From: Escherichia coli
Lineage (GTDB): Bacteria > Pseudomonadota > Gammaproteobacteria > Enterobacterales > Enterobacteriaceae
DNA: 64,000 bases
Assembly: GCF_016026235.1 (NCBI RefSeq)
Contig: NZ_CP065613.1
Direction: 5' to 3' (one strand)
Position numbers and translations under genes: made by a program. A model generated the notes under the pieces. The model ran no database searches. It was not told the origin of the DNA and worked only from the letters and a program-made list of their open reading frames with translations. This document shows, piece after piece, positions 11,286 through 55,560 of this stretch; within the stretch, counting starts at the first letter, position 1, and the number at the start of each line of letters is the position of its first letter.

Positions 11286-13307
11286 ATGCGTCTAAACCCC
11301 GGCCAACAACAAGCTGTCGAATTCGTTACCGGCCCCTGCCTGGTGCTGGCGGGCGCGGGTTCCGGTAAAACTCGTGTTATCACCAATAAAATCGCCCATC
11401 TGATCCGCGGTTGCGGTTATCAGGCGCGGCACATTGCGGCGGTGACCTTTACTAATAAAGCAGCGCGCGAGATGAAAGAGCGTGTAGGGCAGACGCTGGG
11501 GCGCAAAGAGGCGCGTGGGCTGATGATCTCCACTTTCCATACGTTGGGGCTGGATATCATCAAACGCGAGTATGCGGCGCTTGGGATGAAAGCGAACTTC
11601 TCGTTGTTTGACGATACCGATCAGCTTGCTTTGCTTAAAGAGTTGACCGAGGGGCTGATTGAAGATGACAAAGTTCTCCTGCAACAACTGATTTCGACCA
11701 TCTCTAACTGGAAGAATGATCTCAAAACACCGGCGCAGGCGGCGGCAGAGGCAAAGGGCGAGCGGGATCGTATTTTTGCCCATTGTTATGGGCTGTATGA
11801 TGCACACCTGAAAGCCTGTAACGTTCTCGACTTCGATGACCTGATTTTATTGCCGACGTTGCTGCTGCAACGCAATGAAGAAGTACGCGAGCGCTGGCAG
11901 AACAAAATTCGCTACCTGCTGGTGGATGAGTATCAGGACACCAACACCAGCCAGTATGAACTGGTGAAACTGCTGGTGGGCAGCCGCGCGCGCTTTACCG
12001 TGGTGGGTGACGATGACCAGTCGATCTACTCCTGGCGCGGTGCACGTCCGCAAAACCTGGTGCTGCTGAGTCAGGATTTTCCGGCGCTGAAGGTGATTAA
12101 GCTTGAGCAGAACTATCGCTCTTCTGGGCGTATTCTGAAAGCGGCGAACATCCTGATCGCCAATAACCCGCACGTCTTTGAAAAGCGTCTGTTCTCCGAA
12201 CTGGGTTACGGCACAGAGCTAAAAGTTTTAAGCGCGAATAACGAGGAACATGAAGCCGAGCGCGTTACTGGCGAGCTGATCGCCCATCACTTCGTCAATA
12301 AAACGCAGTACAAAGATTATGCCATTCTTTATCGCGGCAACCATCAGTCGCGGGTATTTGAAAAATTCCTGATGCAAAACCGCATCCCGTACAAAATATC
12401 CGGTGGTACGTCGTTTTTCTCTCGTCCTGAAATCAAGGACTTGCTGGCTTATCTGCGCGTGCTGACTAACCCGGACGATGACAGCGCATTTCTGCGTATC
12501 GTTAACACGCCGAAGCGAGAGATTGGCCCGGCGACGCTGAAAAAGTTGGGTGAATGGGCGATGACGCGCAATAAAAGCATGTTTACCGCCAGCTTTGATA
12601 TGGGCCTGAGTCAGACGCTTAGCGGACGTGGTTATGAAGCATTGACCCGCTTCACTCACTGGTTGGCAGAAATCCAGCGTCTGGCGGAGCGGGAGCCGAT
12701 TGCCGCGGTGCGTGATCTGATCCATGGCATGGATTATGAATCCTGGCTGTACGAAACATCGCCCAGCCCGAAAGCCGCCGAAATGCGCATGAAGAACGTC
12801 AACCAACTGTTTAGCTGGATGACGGAGATGCTGGAAGGCAGTGAACTGGATGAGCCGATGACGCTCACCCAGGTGGTGACGCGCTTTACTTTGCGCGACA
12901 TGATGGAGCGTGGTGAGAGTGAAGAAGAGCTGGATCAGGTGCAACTGATGACTCTCCACGCGTCGAAAGGGCTGGAGTTTCCTTATGTCTACATGGTCGG
13001 TATGGAAGAAGGGTTTTTGCCGCACCAGAGCAGCATCGATGAAGATAATATCGATGAGGAGCGGCGGCTGGCCTATGTCGGCATTACCCGCGCCCAGAAG
13101 GAATTGACCTTTACGCTGTGTAAAGAACGCCGTCAGTACGGCGAATTGGTGCGCCCGGAGCCGAGCCGCTTTTTGCTGGAGCTGCCGCAGGATGATCTGA
13201 TTTGGGAACAGGAGCGCAAAGTGGTCAGCGCCGAAGAACGGATGCAGAAAGGGCAAAGCCATCTGGCGAATCTGAAAGCGATGATGGCGGCAAAACGAGG
13301 GAAATAA
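11286..13307 (+). CDS. rep: ATP-dependent DNA helicase Rep
   Basis: ATG at 11286 inside track ORF 11235..13307; [31 protein letters not shown] (Walker A), 673 aa. Confidence 0.95.
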
Positions 13308-49401: not shown

Positions 49402-49833
49402 TTAACCTTTCCGCTCGACGGAAATCATGGTGACAAAAGGATAGCGTTGCCACGGGATTGCCCCGCCTTTCATATACATATGTGAAATCGTACCATCAAG
49501 ATAAAGCAGCTGCTCAACGTTCAGTTTCGCTTTGGCATAACAGGCAAAATCATAAAAATTTGTCGCCTGCTGGCTCAACAAAAACACGGCATTCCCATGT
49601 TTATTAATCCCAACACCGTTACGAATTTTACGTGAGGCGACGTTGGGATGAATACGCGGATTAATTACACCGTTTTCCATCAACATTGGCCCTGACTGCA
49701 CCGCAAACTGAATATCTTTACTGGCTTTAAAAGCATCTAGACGAACGATGCCGACTTTATCTCCCGCGACATAAAACACGCCGCCAGGACGGATAAAGAA
49801 ATTCCCTTCACCTGAAGCGAGATTTAACGCCAC
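49402..49833 (-). pseudogene. yigE: yigE C-terminal fragment (DUF2233), separated from its 5' part by IS4
   Basis: Track ORF continues the reading frame of 51266..51604 across the IS4 target duplication (...QQKV | ALNLASGEG...). Confidence 0.8.
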
Positions 49834-49842
49834 CTTCTGCTG

Positions 49843-51268
49843 TAATGCCGATCAGTTAAGGATCAGTTGACCGATCCAGTGGCTGTGTAAGAATCCGGAA
49901 ACGCTCACTTGTTTCCGGATTTTTTTATGCACATTGGACAGGCTCTTGATCTGGTATCCCGTTACGATTCTCTGCGTAACCCACTGACTTCTCTGGGGGA
50001 TTACCTCGACCCCGAACTCATCTCTCGTTGCCTTGCCGAATCAGGTACTGTAACGCTACGCAAGCGCCGTCTTCCCCTCGAAATGATGGTCTGGTGTATT
50101 GTTGGCATGGCGCTTGAGCGTAAAGAACCTCTTCACCAGATTGTGAATCGCCTGGACATCATGCTGCCGGGCAATCGCCCCTTCGTTGCCCCCAGTGCCG
50201 TTATTCAGGCCCGCCAGCGCCTGGGAAGTGAGGCTGTCCGCCGCGTGTTCACGAAAACAGCGCAGCTCTGGCATAACGCCACGCCGCATCCGCACTGGTG
50301 CGGCCTGACCCTGCTGGCCATCGATGGTGTGTTCTGGCGCACACCGGATACACCAGAGAACGATGCAGCCTTCCCCCGCCAGACACATGCCGGGAACCCG
50401 GCGCTCTACCCGCAGGTCAAAATGGTCTGCCAGATGGAACTGACCAGCCATCTGCTGACGGCTGCAGCCTTCGGCACGATGAAGAACAGCGAAAATGAGC
50501 TTGCTGAGCAACTTATAGAACAAACCGGCGATAACACTCTGACGTTAATGGATAAAGGTTATTACTCACTGGGACTGTTAAATGCCTGGAGCCTGGCGGG
50601 AGAACACCGCCACTGGATGATACCTCTCAGAAAGGGAGCGCAATATGAAGAGCTCAGAAAACTGGGTAAAGGCGATCATCTGGTGAAGCTGAAAACCAGC
50701 CCGCAGGCACGAAAAAAGTGGCCGGGACTGGGAAATGAAGTGACAGCCCGCCTGCTGACCGTGACGCGCAAAGGAAAAGTCTGCCATCTGCTGACGTCGA
50801 TGACGGACGCCATGCGCTTCCCCGGAGGAGAAATGGCGGATCTGTACAGTCATCGCTGGGAAATCGAACTGGGATACAGGGAGATAAAACAGACGATGCA
50901 ACTGAGCAGGCTGACGCTGAGAAGTAAAAAGCCGGAGCTTGTGGAGCAAGAGCTGTGGGGTGTCTTACTGGCTTATAATCTGGTGAGATATCAGATGATT
51001 AAAATGGCGGAACATCTGAAAGGTTACTGGCCGAATCAACTGAGTTTCTCAGAATCATGCGGAATGGTGATGAGAATGCTGATGACATTGCAGGGCGCTT
51101 CACCGGGACGTATACCGGAGCTGATGCGCGATCTTGCAAGTATGGGACAACTTGTGAAATTACCGACGAGAAGGGGAAGGGCCTTCCCGAGAGTGGTAAA
51201 GGAGAGGCCCTGGAAATACCCCACAGCCCCGAAAAAGAGCCAGTCAGTTGCTTAACTGACTGGCATTA
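49843..51268 (+). mobile_element. IS4 insertion sequence (1426 bp)
   Basis: Terminal inverted repeats TAATGCCGATCAGTTAAG / CTTAACTGACTGGCATTA; perfect 12-bp direct repeat CACCTTCTGCTG at 49831-49842 and 51269-51280. Confidence 0.93.
49927..51255 (+). CDS. insG: IS4 transposase
   Basis: [34 protein letters not shown]... (442 aa, DDE type) inside track ORF 49909..51255. Confidence 0.93.
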
Positions 51269-51604
51269 CACCTTCTGCTGACCGTTTTCGATGTACAAAC
51301 CGAGCGGCGCATAGCTTTCATCATAGATGCCGCCGTTCATCGCCATCTGCACCTGACCCTGACTATTCATATCCGCCAGCAGAGCATGTAACGTTCCCCA
51401 CGCTTCGCCATTAGCTTTTTGCCAGTACATTTTCACCCGCTCTGTTTGAGGATTAACGGTATACGCCTGTACGGTCAGCGTCGGATCTGAGAGTGCGCAA
51501 TCATCAGCGGCAACAGCAAACAAGGGAAGTAAGGTGAGGGTGAGAAAAATCTGTTTGAGATTCAAGGTGATCATTCCTTTACCAATGAGTAGCCGATGCG
51601 CCAT
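51266..51604 (-). pseudogene. yigE: yigE N-terminal fragment (signal peptide + first ~110 codons)
   Basis: Track ORF MAHRLLIGKGMITLNLKQIFLTLTLLPLFAVAADDCALS...; stops two codons into the IS4 end. Confidence 0.8.
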
Positions 51605-51973: not shown

Positions 51974-52924
51974 ATGCTGAGCGCATTTCAACTGGAAAAT
52001 AACCGACTGACCCGGCTGGAAGTCGAAGAGTCACAACCCCTTGTAAATGCAGTATGGATTGATCTTGTCGAACCGGACGACGACGAGCGACTGCGCGTAC
52101 AATCTGAACTTGGCCAGAGCCTGGCAACCCGCCCGGAACTGGAAGACATCGAAGCATCGGCACGTTTCTTTGAAGACGACGACGGCCTGCATATTCACTC
52201 CTTCTTCTTCTTTGAAGATGCGGAAGATCACGCCGGTAACTCCACTGTGGCATTTACCATCCGTGATGGTCGTCTGTTTACTCTGCGTGAGCGTGAACTG
52301 CCCGCTTTTCGTCTGTATCGTATGCGTGCCCGTAGCCAGTCGATGGTAGACGGTAACGCCTACGAGCTGCTGCTGGATCTGTTCGAAACCAAAATCGAAC
52401 AGTTGGCAGATGAAATTGAAAATATCTATAGCGACCTGGAGCAGTTGAGCCGGGTGATTATGGAAGGGCATCAGGGCGATGAGTACGACGAGGCGCTCTC
52501 CACTCTGGCGGAACTGGAAGATATCGGCTGGAAAGTTCGCCTGTGTCTGATGGATACCCAGCGCGCGCTCAACTTCCTGGTGCGTAAAGCGCGTTTACCG
52601 GGTGGGCAACTGGAGCAGGCGCGTGAAATCCTGCGAGATATCGAATCCCTGCTGCCGCATAACGAATCCCTGTTCCAGAAGGTGAACTTCCTGATGCAGG
52701 CGGCGATGGGTTTTATCAACATCGAGCAGAACCGCATCATCAAAATCTTCTCGGTGGTATCCGTGGTATTCCTGCCGCCGACGCTCGTTGCTTCCAGCTA
52801 TGGGATGAACTTTGAGTTTATGCCAGAACTGAAGTGGAGTTTCGGCTACCCAGGCGCGATTATCTTTATGATCCTCGCGGGCCTGGCACCGTATCTGTAC
52901 TTTAAGCGCAAGAACTGGCTGTAA
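51974..52924 (+). CDS. corA: Mg2+/Co2+ transporter CorA
   Basis: ATG at 51974 inside track ORF 51959..52924; [20 protein letters not shown]...; GMN motif and C-terminal TM pair; 316 aa. Confidence 0.95.
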
Positions 52925-52931
52925 TATGAGT

Positions 52932-52968
52932 GCCGGATAAAGCTATTTTTTTATCCGGCTTATTTCTA
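52932..52968. terminator. bidirectional hairpin terminator (corA / downstream cassette)
   Basis: GCCGGATAAAGCTATTTTTTTATCCGGC followed by T-rich tract; sits between corA stop and the stop of the 159-aa minus-strand ORF. Confidence 0.7.
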
Positions 52969-52977
52969 AAAATTGTC

Positions 52978-53457
52978 TTATTTAAAGTCATGCGGATTGA
53001 AAACTCGCTCTATTTTATTTTCTTGTGTTAATTGATACTCAGTAAAATCGTTAATACCAATATGAGTGTTACGATAAGGGTATTCATTAATAACCATTAA
53101 GTAATTTTTCACGATGCAATTATCATTGCTCTTAATTGTCGGGAAACAGTAGAGATCTTCATACGGCCCTTCGATATATTTTTTATAGTCAGTGAAGCCA
53201 TTACCGATATCAATGACATACCAGGTATGCCAACTACCTTCTGGTAGGGGATGTTGATTTTTAATTTCATTCTGATGCTTCAGATACCAATTTATTTTAT
53301 CGCTGTCAGTCCATGGCAGATGATCAACGACCAGAAAGACTGAATTGCCAGCATCAGAGTATGTATACAAAATCTGTACAGGACGCAATGTCCATAAATT
53401 ATAGATGCAGCATAGAAGAAATAAACATAATATAATTTTCTGGAGTTTGCTTTTCAT
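52978..53457 (-). CDS. hypothetical signal-anchored/exported protein (159 aa), second gene of corA-adjacent cassette
   Basis: Track ORF; N-terminal hydrophobic segment MKSKLQKIILCLFLLCCIYNLW; start overlaps upstream ORF stop (ATGA at 53454-53457); AT-rich codon usage. Confidence 0.7.
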   Translation of the reverse strand: MKSKLQKIILCLFLLCCIYNLWTLRPVQILYTYSDAGNSVFLVVDHLPWTDSDKINWYLKHQNEIKNQHPLPEGSWHTWYVIDIGNGFTDYKKYIEGPYEDLYCFPTIKSNDNCIVKNYLMVINEYPYRNTHIGINDFTEYQLTQENKIERVFNPHDFK

Positions 53458-54308
53458 AGATAATTTTCGATTCTTTCGATAGTGTTAAAATTGGTGAAAA
53501 AAGGTTTGAAAGCAAAGTCTTTATGCCGTTGTAAAAAGAACCATATGCGAAAAAATCTATATTTGCTGTAAGTCTTGTTTTTGATATCAGTTACATCAAG
53601 ACCGAAGTGGTCCTGTGCTACAAAATGAATTGTTGCACTCCATCCTATAGCGTATTTTTGAAAACTTAAAAGAGATATTTTTTGAGCTGAAATATCATGA
53701 ACACTGATTCCTAAGCCATTAAAACTGTCCTCGAAGTCATTAAATTTATTTAGTCTTGATGAAAGTAATTTGGTTTTAATGCTTTGCAGGATAAGAGGTT
53801 GGTATCCTGTCGAGGGAGTTGAATTAATGCCATTTTCGATACATTCTTTGATTATTCGTATTGGACTATTATAACCATATTTATTTATTTTTTCATGAAA
53901 AGATAAATTTAATTGTTGGCTATGAAAATTGCTGCCATTTCCATATCTAAAATGTTCAATCAGATCTTCGATAAGTGTTTTATATTGTCCAAAAAAGGAA
54001 AGCATTTTTGCTAGTTCTTTCATTTCTGCAAATAAAATATCAGTGCATTCACGTTGTGATATTTTTGTTCCGGAACTTGAGGCACTAAAAGCAACATTAA
54101 TAGAACCTGGGCCAGGGAAATGGTATTTAATAAGTCTGTAAGGATCAACTTTTGCTGAGATATCGCTTAGGCCGAGTGAGAGAAAGTCTTGTTCTACCAT
54201 ATCACCATATTGCATATCATCAGCAGAAAAATCATCGAATAAACTAATAGTTTCGAAAAGTGTACAGGGAATATTAATTGGCGGAAGTAATATGTTATTC
54301 ATTTGCAT
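53454..54308 (-). CDS. hypothetical protein (284 aa), first gene of corA-adjacent cassette
   Basis: Track ORF MQMNNILLPPINIPCTLFETISLFDDFSADDMQYGDMVEQDF...; no TM segment or catalytic motif I can assign by eye; AT-rich. Confidence 0.7.
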   Translation of the reverse strand: MQMNNILLPPINIPCTLFETISLFDDFSADDMQYGDMVEQDFLSLGLSDISAKVDPYRLIKYHFPGPGSINVAFSASSSGTKISQRECTDILFAEMKELAKMLSFFGQYKTLIEDLIEHFRYGNGSNFHSQQLNLSFHEKINKYGYNSPIRIIKECIENGINSTPSTGYQPLILQSIKTKLLSSRLNKFNDFEDSFNGLGISVHDISAQKISLLSFQKYAIGWSATIHFVAQDHFGLDVTDIKNKTYSKYRFFRIWFFLQRHKDFAFKPFFTNFNTIERIENYL

Positions 54309-54498
54309 TTGCCTTGGTTATATTTAAGCTCAATATCAATTCGAGAACAAATGCTAGGGTAAAAAAATATTTAAAAAAGAAGTACACTTCACATTTTTTC
54401 ATTACATCTCTGAAGAGAACCTCGTTAATGATTGGTCTTGCTCATTGTTAATAACAAAATGTTGAATTTACCGATTAGGAAACTTTTTCCTACGCGGA

Positions 54499-54635
54499 TT
54501 GCCTCCAGTTCTGGCATGAACTTTGAGTTTATGCCAGAACTGAAGTGGGGCTTCGGCTACCCTGGCGCGATTATCTTTATGATCCTCGCGGGCCTGACAC
54601 CGTATCTGTACTTTAAGCGTAAGAACTGGCTGTAA
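54499..54635 (+). pseudogene. diverged duplicate of the corA 3' end (last ~45 codons + stop)
   Basis: ~137 bp alignable by eye to 52788-52924 with roughly ten mismatches; encodes ...[40 protein letters not shown]; track ORF 54432..54635 extends it to an upstream ATG. Confidence 0.85.
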
Positions 54636-54659: not shown

Positions 54660-55046
54660 TTAGTGTGCTGACAGCGACATTTTAGCCGAGGGAATCGCAG
54701 ATAACATAATTGTTGTGAATAATATCCATGCCACGTTGAGTTGGACGCTTAATGACTCACATCTCACCCCTTCAATTGCTGCAGAGATAATAGAAAAAAG
54801 TGTCAAACCCAATGAAATCAATACAAAGTAGATTGCCTTACATCCAGTATCTCTTATTCTTTTTGCTCCAATATTGATATTTACATAGGTATTATTAATA
54901 ACCAGAATAAAACTCAAAGCCAGGTTGATATCATTCAAAGTTATTAATATTGACCATGATGTTAATGTATAGATTATGAACTGAAAGCGTGATAAACGCT
55001 CAAGCCTGGATGGGTAGAATATATTTCTGATGGATGATTTGAACAT
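54660..55046 (-). CDS. hypothetical small inner-membrane protein (128 aa); yigF position by synteny
   Basis: Track ORF with at least three hydrophobic segments; AT-rich; lies between corA region and rarD where K-12 carries yigF/yigG. Identity not verified. Confidence 0.6.
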   Translation of the reverse strand: MFKSSIRNIFYPSRLERLSRFQFIIYTLTSWSILITLNDINLALSFILVINNTYVNINIGAKRIRDTGCKAIYFVLISLGLTLFSIISAAIEGVRCESLSVQLNVAWILFTTIMLSAIPSAKMSLSAH

Positions 55047-55245: not shown

Positions 55246-55560
55246 GTGAATGGATTCTATATGGGAAATGGTAACTTTTGGCAGTTGTTCTTGGGTAAAG
55301 AACCTTACAGCAAAAAATCTTATTTTGTTAAGGCATGGTTATTGTGGTGGGCTATTACCATCCTTGTTCTATTTATTTTAAGCCTGACTACGACATTAAA
55401 TTTAAGAAGTATAGGTATAGGGTTAAGTTTTGGGTTTTGTCAAATTCTTGGTAGATATACGATGTCTCTAGGATGGAGTAAGTACTGGGGAGTTTTGGGG
55501 GTATTTCCTGTAACAAATATTGTTCTTTTTCTTATCTTAATTTTTTTCAAAAAAAGATAA
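55246..55560 (+). CDS. hypothetical small membrane protein (104 aa)
   Basis: Track ORF with two clear hydrophobic helices (AWLLWWAITILVLFILSL; GVLGVFPVTNIVLFLILIFF); AT-rich; followed by hairpin GGGTAGGC...GCCTACCC. Confidence 0.5.
   Translation: MNGFYMGNGNFWQLFLGKEPYSKKSYFVKAWLLWWAITILVLFILSLTTTLNLRSIGIGLSFGFCQILGRYTMSLGWSKYWGVLGVFPVTNIVLFLILIFFKKR

Follow-up and report, generated by a model that had tools for sequence, protein, structure and literature searches.

What is the role of a 159-amino-acid open reading frame (ORF) whose start codon overlaps the stop codon of a 284-amino-acid ORF beside corA on an Escherichia coli chromosome? The ORF lies on the minus strand at positions 52978..53457 of a 64,000-nucleotide stretch (contig NZ_CP065613.1; called the window below), and its protein begins MKSKLQKIILCLFLLCCIYNLW. 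An earlier note made from the letters of this DNA alone had placed an ORF at the same coordinates, with no strand given, and had listed its product as a candidate immunity, sensor or membrane-effector component; the ends annotated in RefSeq are identical to those found here. We find that the ORF is real and encodes a DUF943 protein, predicted to be membrane-anchored and to face the periplasm; it belongs to a toxin-immunity pair that is already known, of which it is an unremarkable E. coli representative. Its partner is a DUF3289 protein, and we consider it highly probable that the two genes form a module in which the 159-residue product is the immunity protein and the DUF3289 toxin is blocked in the periplasm. 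The parts of the pair are located in the window as follows:

52978..53457, minus strand: DUF943 family gene, predicted immunity protein (RefSeq WP_000837561.1)
53454..54308, minus strand: DUF3289/YPO3983-family gene upstream of the immunity gene, predicted periplasm-acting antibacterial toxin of 284 amino acids
53454..53457, minus strand: ATGA stop/start overlap of the toxin and immunity genes, 4 nt, shared by ATG and TGA with three bases each
53386..53436, minus strand: predicted single N-terminal transmembrane signal anchor, residues 8-24 (IILCLFLLCCIYNLWTL), mean Kyte-Doolittle hydropathy over 17 residues 2.36, AlphaFold2 helix at residues 2-23
53116..53148, minus strand: codons for Cys104 to Cys114 in the soluble domain; of 99 family members, 97 have C104 and 95 have C114

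The 159-residue protein matches Pfam DUF943 (PF06092; E = 1.7e-26), its residues 2-152 aligning with model positions 1-150 of 151; an NCBIfam search gave no match for it. By an exhaustive HMMER search the DUF943 family comprises 126 representatives at 50% identity, and in a 99-sequence alignment of the family P48, W57, G87, C104, F105, C114, and K117 are nearly invariant. The body of the protein had been described as rich in Tyr, Asn, and Trp, and its composition agrees with this (Y 8.2%, N 8.8%, W 3.1%). The C-terminal tail is variable: the window allele ends in NPHDFK (52978-52989), 4-6 residues before the commoner E. coli alleles, which have 163 (ending in KKDNF) and 165 (ending in EKDNFQQ) amino acids. 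A role as an anti-phage defence component was ruled out, since neither protein of the pair matches a PADLOC model; the two neighbouring small ORFs do not match one either.

As is typical of DUF943 members, the gene stands directly downstream of a DUF3289 gene and on the same strand. The 284-residue product of the latter matches Pfam DUF3289 over residues 12-280 (E = 1.7e-83) and the NCBIfam model TIGR03034, "YPO3983 family", with 436.6 bits against a cutoff of 156.45. RefSeq starts this gene at the second ATG, at 54302, two codons later, which yields a protein of 282 amino acids. The toxin ORF ends ...TAT CTA TGA, and the junction reads, on the minus strand, ...TAT CTA TGA AAA GC...; the overlap of start and stop pointed out in the earlier note is indeed there, as an ATGA of 4 nt. 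In the window allele, the immunity ATG has no apparent Shine-Dalgarno sequence ahead of it, which fits a dependence on translational coupling. A promoter scan (4 sites, versus 7.8 in shuffles) was uninformative on an internal immunity promoter. The claim that the two genes are almost certainly co-expressed at fixed stoichiometry holds in part: co-translation is likely from the overlap, and a fixed stoichiometry is an overstatement.

The best 17-residue Kyte-Doolittle window in the DUF943 protein covers residues 8-24 (mean 2.36), and the same scan found no second hydrophobic segment in the protein. Three lysines (K2, K4, and K7) precede the segment. The AlphaFold2 model built on the 99-sequence alignment (predicted local distance difference test, 94.3; predicted template modelling score, 0.85) combines a single helix, spanning residues 2-23, with a compact alpha/beta domain. 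No lipobox was seen by eye after the helix, nor any cleavage site with small residues at -3/-1, and for this reason an uncleaved signal anchor appears more likely than a cleaved signal peptide. The pattern extends to the family: in 89 of the 99 members, a 17-residue segment at the N terminus reaches a hydropathy of at least 1.6; it starts near residue 7 and is preceded in the family by a mean of 2.5 Lys/Arg residues. Likewise in 89 of 99, exactly two cysteines occur beyond residue 30, at two conserved columns, and Cys104 and Cys114 of the window protein probably form a periplasmic disulfide. What is predicted, as for other DUF943 proteins, is a single N-terminal transmembrane anchor with the remainder of the chain outside the cytoplasm. 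From sequence and model together we infer an N-in, C-out signal anchor that carries a disulfide-bonded periplasmic domain. The published prediction for T6IC1, a DUF943 protein of Yersinia pseudotuberculosis, is similar, with a transmembrane segment at 7-26 and periplasmic residues 27-157 (PMC11148199). Along with the hydropathy maximum, the positively charged residues ahead of it, and the two conserved cysteines, it supports the hydrophobic signal/anchor and the periplasm-facing body proposed earlier.

Structural searches led to one solved complex for both proteins. In a fold search, the nearest solved structure to the modelled DUF943 protein was BtpiA, the immunity chain of the complex between BtpiA and the C-terminal domain (CTD) of BtpeA. 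A profile of 27 DUF3289 proteins matches the effector chains 9jdi_A and 9jg8_B (E = 1.5e-7), both deposited as "DUF3289 family protein", and the 284-residue protein has the fold of this solved DUF3289 effector domain. Because the DUF943 protein matches the BtpiA chain and DUF3289 the effector chain, the window pair maps onto the two chains of a single effector-immunity complex, and the 159-residue protein is shown, in its predicted model, to correspond to the immunity chain. Only the fold search linked DUF943 to BtpiA; by sequence, the DUF943 profile retrieved nothing meaningful from the PDB (best E = 1.3).

DUF943 as the immunity partner of DUF3289 T6SS (type VI secretion system) toxins is already published, since 2024. 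In Y. pseudotuberculosis, the C-terminal DUF3289 domain of a PAAR protein encoded in a T6SS operon kills E. coli from the periplasm and rounds the cells, and the adjacent DUF943 protein rescues E. coli (PMC11148199). Its authors proposed that DUF3289 is a structural homologue of colicin M and DUF943 its immunity protein (Mol Syst Biol 2024; PMC11148199). In Aeromonas jandaei, secretion of an orphan DUF3289 protein that stands alone depends on the T6SS, and this protein is part of a proven effector-immunity pair (PLoS Biol 2025; PMC12135965); its immunity protein is a different protein, of 95 amino acids (PMC12135965). In Klebsiella, the DUF3289-DUF943 linkage was found 780 times (PLoS Genet 2025; PMC12469244). 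The Yersinia results (PMC11148199) and the BtpiA fold match favour immunity among the three roles listed in the earlier note; sensor and membrane effector are unsupported here. That note had given neither the family names, DUF943 and DUF3289, nor the type VI secretion context, and its observation as such is confirmed. RefSeq, too, labels both genes by DUF or family names only, though a function was published in 2024.

We propose the following mechanism. The DUF3289 protein would be an antibacterial effector acting in the periplasm, delivered by the T6SS as in the cases tested elsewhere and possibly attacking the cell wall in the colicin-M-like way put forward in the literature. The DUF943 protein would be inserted in the inner membrane via its uncleaved N-terminal helix, with the N terminus in the cytoplasm, and its alpha/beta domain of ~135 residues, probably held by Cys104-Cys114, would face the periplasm. 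There, on the outer side of that membrane, this domain would bind and block incoming DUF3289 toxin from sister cells. Ribosomes ending the toxin gene would re-initiate at the ATGA on the immunity gene, an arrangement that would allow no toxin without immunity. Neutralisation of the window toxin by the 159-residue protein is what the Yersinia homologue leads one to expect (PMC11148199), and T6SS-dependent secretion and killing would be expected by analogy with the Aeromonas orphan DUF3289 protein.

The pair is common and well preserved in E. coli. Of 5426 complete genomes, 2648 carry the immunity gene and 2644 the toxin gene (~49%), and all copies are chromosomal. About 2646 genomes have the immunity gene intact; the toxin is intact in ~99% of carriers at a coverage of at least 80%. 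DNA identity separates two main E. coli allele groups, the toxin matching at 95% or more in 1715 genomes and at 80-90% in 851. Between these groups, the ratio of non-synonymous to synonymous substitution rates (dN/dS) is 0.17 for the immunity gene (dS 0.22) and 0.17 for the toxin gene (dS 0.44), and relative to Salmonella arizonae it is 0.16 and 0.12, respectively. Both reading frames are under purifying selection. The pair at corA, present in about half of complete E. coli genomes, is thus predicted to be a common determinant of strain competition. BL21(DE3) also carries an intact DUF3289-DUF943 pair (L015, 2989-4325), with an immunity protein of 163 amino acids. The published toxicity of the Yersinia DUF3289 domain was assayed in this strain (PMC11148199), and the strain's own DUF943 copy evidently gave no protection there, owing either to allele-specific immunity or to a silent gene, a point of use to those who employ BL21 as T6SS prey.

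For related loci, one genome per species was scanned with a 14-sequence query set; the scan reached only close relatives and returned 12 loci (given here by L numbers), whose immunity proteins are 28% to 100% identical to that of the window. In seven of them, an intact toxin ORF is followed directly by a DUF943 gene, with an overlap of 4 nt (ATGA) or 1 nt (TGATG/TAATG): L003 (E. coli DNA), L004 (S. arizonae), L006 and L007 (Trabulsiella), L009 (Huaxiibacter), L010 (Lelliottia), and L012 (Enterobacter). In L013 (Trabulsiella) the stop/start overlap is kept and the toxin is split into two ORFs. The toxin-then-immunity order with overlap, as well as the immunity reading frame, is conserved over five genera, the intact pairs holding to this order at immunity identities of 28-63%, and the description of the 159-residue protein as a coupled partner of the 284-residue one gains from this. 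L003 lies on a 5289-bp contig (CASFSC010000051.1) binned as 'uncultured Alistipes sp.'; its CorA and DUF943 proteins are 100% and its toxin 98.9% identical to those of the window, and the contig almost certainly belongs to E. coli and was mis-binned into a metagenome-assembled genome.

Additional DUF943 genes occur in L006 and L008-L010 and C-terminal toxin fragments in L008-L010, as is commonly seen at polymorphic toxin loci. L006, L008, L009, and L010 are arrays between fadH and lsrK. L008 (Trabulsiella guamensis, 8040-12619) contains, in order, a truncated toxin with an immunity gene, a toxin N/C fragment with an immunity gene, an extra immunity gene, and a second full pair. L009 and L010 each have one pair, then a C-terminal toxin fragment and a divergent orphan DUF943 gene; L006 has one pair followed by more DUF943 copies. 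Elsewhere the toxin is damaged or missing. In L005 (S. diarizonae, 6061-7384, by corA), the toxin is frameshifted and the immunity gene intact; in L011 (Atlantibacter, 10001-10451), the toxin is absent and the immunity gene disrupted (a 119-residue ORF with a split match); in L014, a DUF943 homologue stands without any toxin match. L005 and L011 look like stages in the decay of one corA-linked module. With two allele groups in E. coli, arrays, and immunity-only loci, the pair has the polymorphism of known effector-immunity pairs.

Several observations weigh against the mechanism as a whole. No T6SS gene (hcp, vgrG, PAAR, tss) was found within ~6 kb of the window pair, nor any within 10 kb of the pair in L004-L014, and no delivery domain is recognisable in the toxin, residues 12-280 of which are covered by DUF3289. 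BL21(DE3) keeps its intact pair with no T6SS cluster at aspV, the only site inspected, where IS1 and ISAs1 are found instead; because of this, T6SS delivery is unproven at the window locus. Binding, neutralisation, and expression are predictions for the window pair. The biochemical target is unproven as well, as regards a chemistry of the colicin M type. When the 284-residue toxin was compared with colicin M by hhalign (using a colicin M sequence identical to 2xmx_A), the probability was 0.25%, and only HFRYGNG was aligned with HYLWGNG. Pfam Colicin_M did not match the toxin at E <= 10. By eye, the colicin M catalytic motif DxYD(x5)HR is absent from the toxin; the region reads QDHFGLDVTD, which is invariant in the DUF3289 family. 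The invariant surface of the toxin comprises H204-D205, D233-H234, D238, D241, R254, and H262. Fold searches with a toxin model of medium quality did not retrieve colicin M. Because the pair is intact in BL21(DE3), lacks T6SS linkage in its closest relatives, and yields neither the colicin M motif nor a retrieval of its fold, we allow a small chance that the corA-linked module is T6SS-independent or that its toxin is not a lipid II hydrolase of the colicin M type. If so, the toxin could act in the periplasm by a new chemistry or be released by another route, and DUF943 could be retained chiefly for defensive immunity.

The first half of this alternative, a functional module independent of the T6SS, which would serve mainly as defensive immunity against DUF3289-armed competitors, the toxin gene being merely carried along, or release its toxin by a route such as lysis or vesicles, has by itself a slim chance in our view. 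The absence of T6SS genes near any close homologue and the intact pair of BL21(DE3) speak for it, as do the immunity-only loci. Yet the purifying selection on the toxin equals that on the immunity gene (omega 0.17), and its gene is intact in nearly all carriers. The islet that holds the pair is carried by O157:H7 strains, and O157:H7 Sakai has a T6SS cluster, at aspV. Moreover, the T6SS of Aeromonas secretes orphan DUF3289 effectors whose genes are remote from T6SS genes (PMC12135965), and the case of BL21(DE3) depends on a single inspected site.

It is very unlikely that the roles are reversed, such that DUF943 would be the toxic effector, aimed at membranes, and DUF3289, itself non-toxic, an adaptor or chaperone loading it onto the T6SS. 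This assignment, DUF943 toxic and DUF3289 an adaptor, was made in a 2021 preprint, the sole evidence for a toxic DUF943, by the group that later published the Yersinia results: over-expressed DUF943 of Aeromonas piscicola was toxic in E. coli, its cytoplasmic DUF3289 neighbour was not, and variation in DUF943 copy number was read as rapid effector evolution (10.1101/2021.10.07.463556). The structures argue against it: among solved structures, the one nearest to DUF943 is an immunity chain and the one nearest to DUF3289 an effector chain, both from one crystal. Over-expression of a signal-anchored protein is, besides, often toxic in a non-specific way. Loci in which an intact DUF943 gene accompanies a degraded or missing toxin (L005, L014) fit orphan immunity rather than an unprotected orphan toxin, and the same group reversed the assignment once DUF3289 had been sent to the periplasm (PMC11148199). 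That the ORF is spurious or decaying, a functionless part of an AT-rich, horizontally acquired remnant, would suit its low GC content (32%), the lack of a visible Shine-Dalgarno sequence, and the lack of a promoter signal above shuffles, but is refuted by conservation of the frame over five genera and in about 2646 genomes, as by the strong Pfam match, the confident fold, and a dN/dS of 0.17.

The toxin-immunity pair is the only content of a small low-GC islet on the E. coli chromosome, where the local gene order is uvrD, yigE, corA, the DUF3289/DUF943 pair, rarD, yigI, and pldA. The islet and its borders in the window are:

52925..54488, no strand assigned: low-GC islet holding only the toxin-immunity pair, 1.56 kb, ~32% GC versus 52% for the window, found in 2636-2648 of 5426 complete E. 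coli genomes
52778..52924, plus strand: 3' end of the functional corA, proximal copy of a 147-nt direct repeat, 142/147 identical to K-12
54489..54635, plus strand: duplicated corA 3' fragment, a pseudogene and the distal repeat copy, 91% identical to the proximal copy
52932..52959, no strand assigned: hairpin rich in GC in the gap where corA and the immunity gene converge, with a stem of 11 pairs and, on the plus strand, a T run after it

The two copies of the direct repeat bracket the islet at a spacing of 1711 nt. The distal fragment matches TIGR00383 (corA) at profile positions 273-320 and is annotated in RefSeq as a partial CorA pseudogene; that it is the native, K-12-like copy was ruled out, as it is 136/147 identical to K-12, versus 142/147 for the proximal copy. 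The hairpin is likely a shared terminator, if on weak support (one site, versus 1.2 in shuffles). K-12 has an empty site (corA-yigF-yigG-rarD, with the islet absent), BL21(DE3) has the same islet together with K-12-like yigF and yigG, and a urinary isolate of the second allele group (strain E02) has the order corA-immunity-toxin-rarD, with no duplication and no yigF/yigG. S. arizonae has the pair directly between corA and rarD, again without a duplication and in the order of strain E02. Because the contents of the corA-rarD interval differ among K-12, BL21(DE3), E02, and S. arizonae, the interval behaves as a hot spot of cassette exchange; among E. coli strains the islet is polymorphic, present in some and absent from others.

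Between the corA fragment and rarD, two small membrane-protein ORFs in DNA of 26-33% GC take the place of the yigF-yigG of K-12 and BL21. One (54660-55046, minus strand) encodes a divergent YigF-like protein of 128 amino acids with a weak match to NF008474 (26 bits, cutoff 217), and the other (55246-55560, plus strand) a 104-residue hypothetical protein (RefSeq WP_000526442.1) with no family match. On the other side of corA, a 1426-bp insertion sequence of the IS4 family (49843-51268) splits yigE into halves at 49402-49833 and 51266-51604 on the minus strand; yigE is intact in FDAARGOS_943, K-12, and BL21. The element contains a transposase ORF (49909-51255; NF033592, E = 1.5e-90), has terminal inverted repeats of 18-20 nt, and is flanked by a 12-bp target duplication, CACCTTCTGCTG, at 49831-49842 and 51269-51280.

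What remains of interest is that the pair is very prevalent in E. coli, that BL21(DE3) carries it, and that its delivery route and chemistry are unproven. It can be set beside four known systems. Colicin M is a periplasm-acting cell-wall toxin neutralised by Cmi, a small protein with an N-terminal helix in the inner membrane and a disulfide-containing periplasmic domain. The logic of DUF3289/DUF943 is analogous, and colicin M and DUF3289 have an H(F/Y)xxGNG motif in common; no shared fold was found between the DUF943 protein and Cmi, and colicin M enters via FhuA/TonB, not the T6SS. BtpeA CTD-BtpiA of Bacteroides fragilis (PDB 9jdi, 9jg8, 9jg9), the complex onto which the window pair maps, is from a different phylum; the immunity proteins are 10% identical, with no match at the level of hidden Markov models, and BtpeA, a long effector of the PAAR type, requires an adaptor. 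The complex was reportedly described by Li et al. in Cell Host Microbe in 2025. WP_042032936.1 of A. jandaei is, like the window toxin, a stand-alone DUF3289 protein, encoded away from T6SS clusters and with an immunity gene downstream, whose product, however, is unrelated to DUF943 and combines in its 95 residues a signal peptide with three helices that span the membrane (PMC12135965). The fourth counterpart is T6EC1/T6IC1 of Y. pseudotuberculosis IP32881, which has the same Pfam families, gene order, and predicted topology as the window pair and an immunity protein of 157 residues, compared with 159 (PMC11148199). The two pairs differ in how the toxin is housed: T6EC1 joins its toxin domain to a PAAR spike tip and is encoded within a T6SS operon, whereas the window toxin is a stand-alone protein encoded in an orphan islet by corA.
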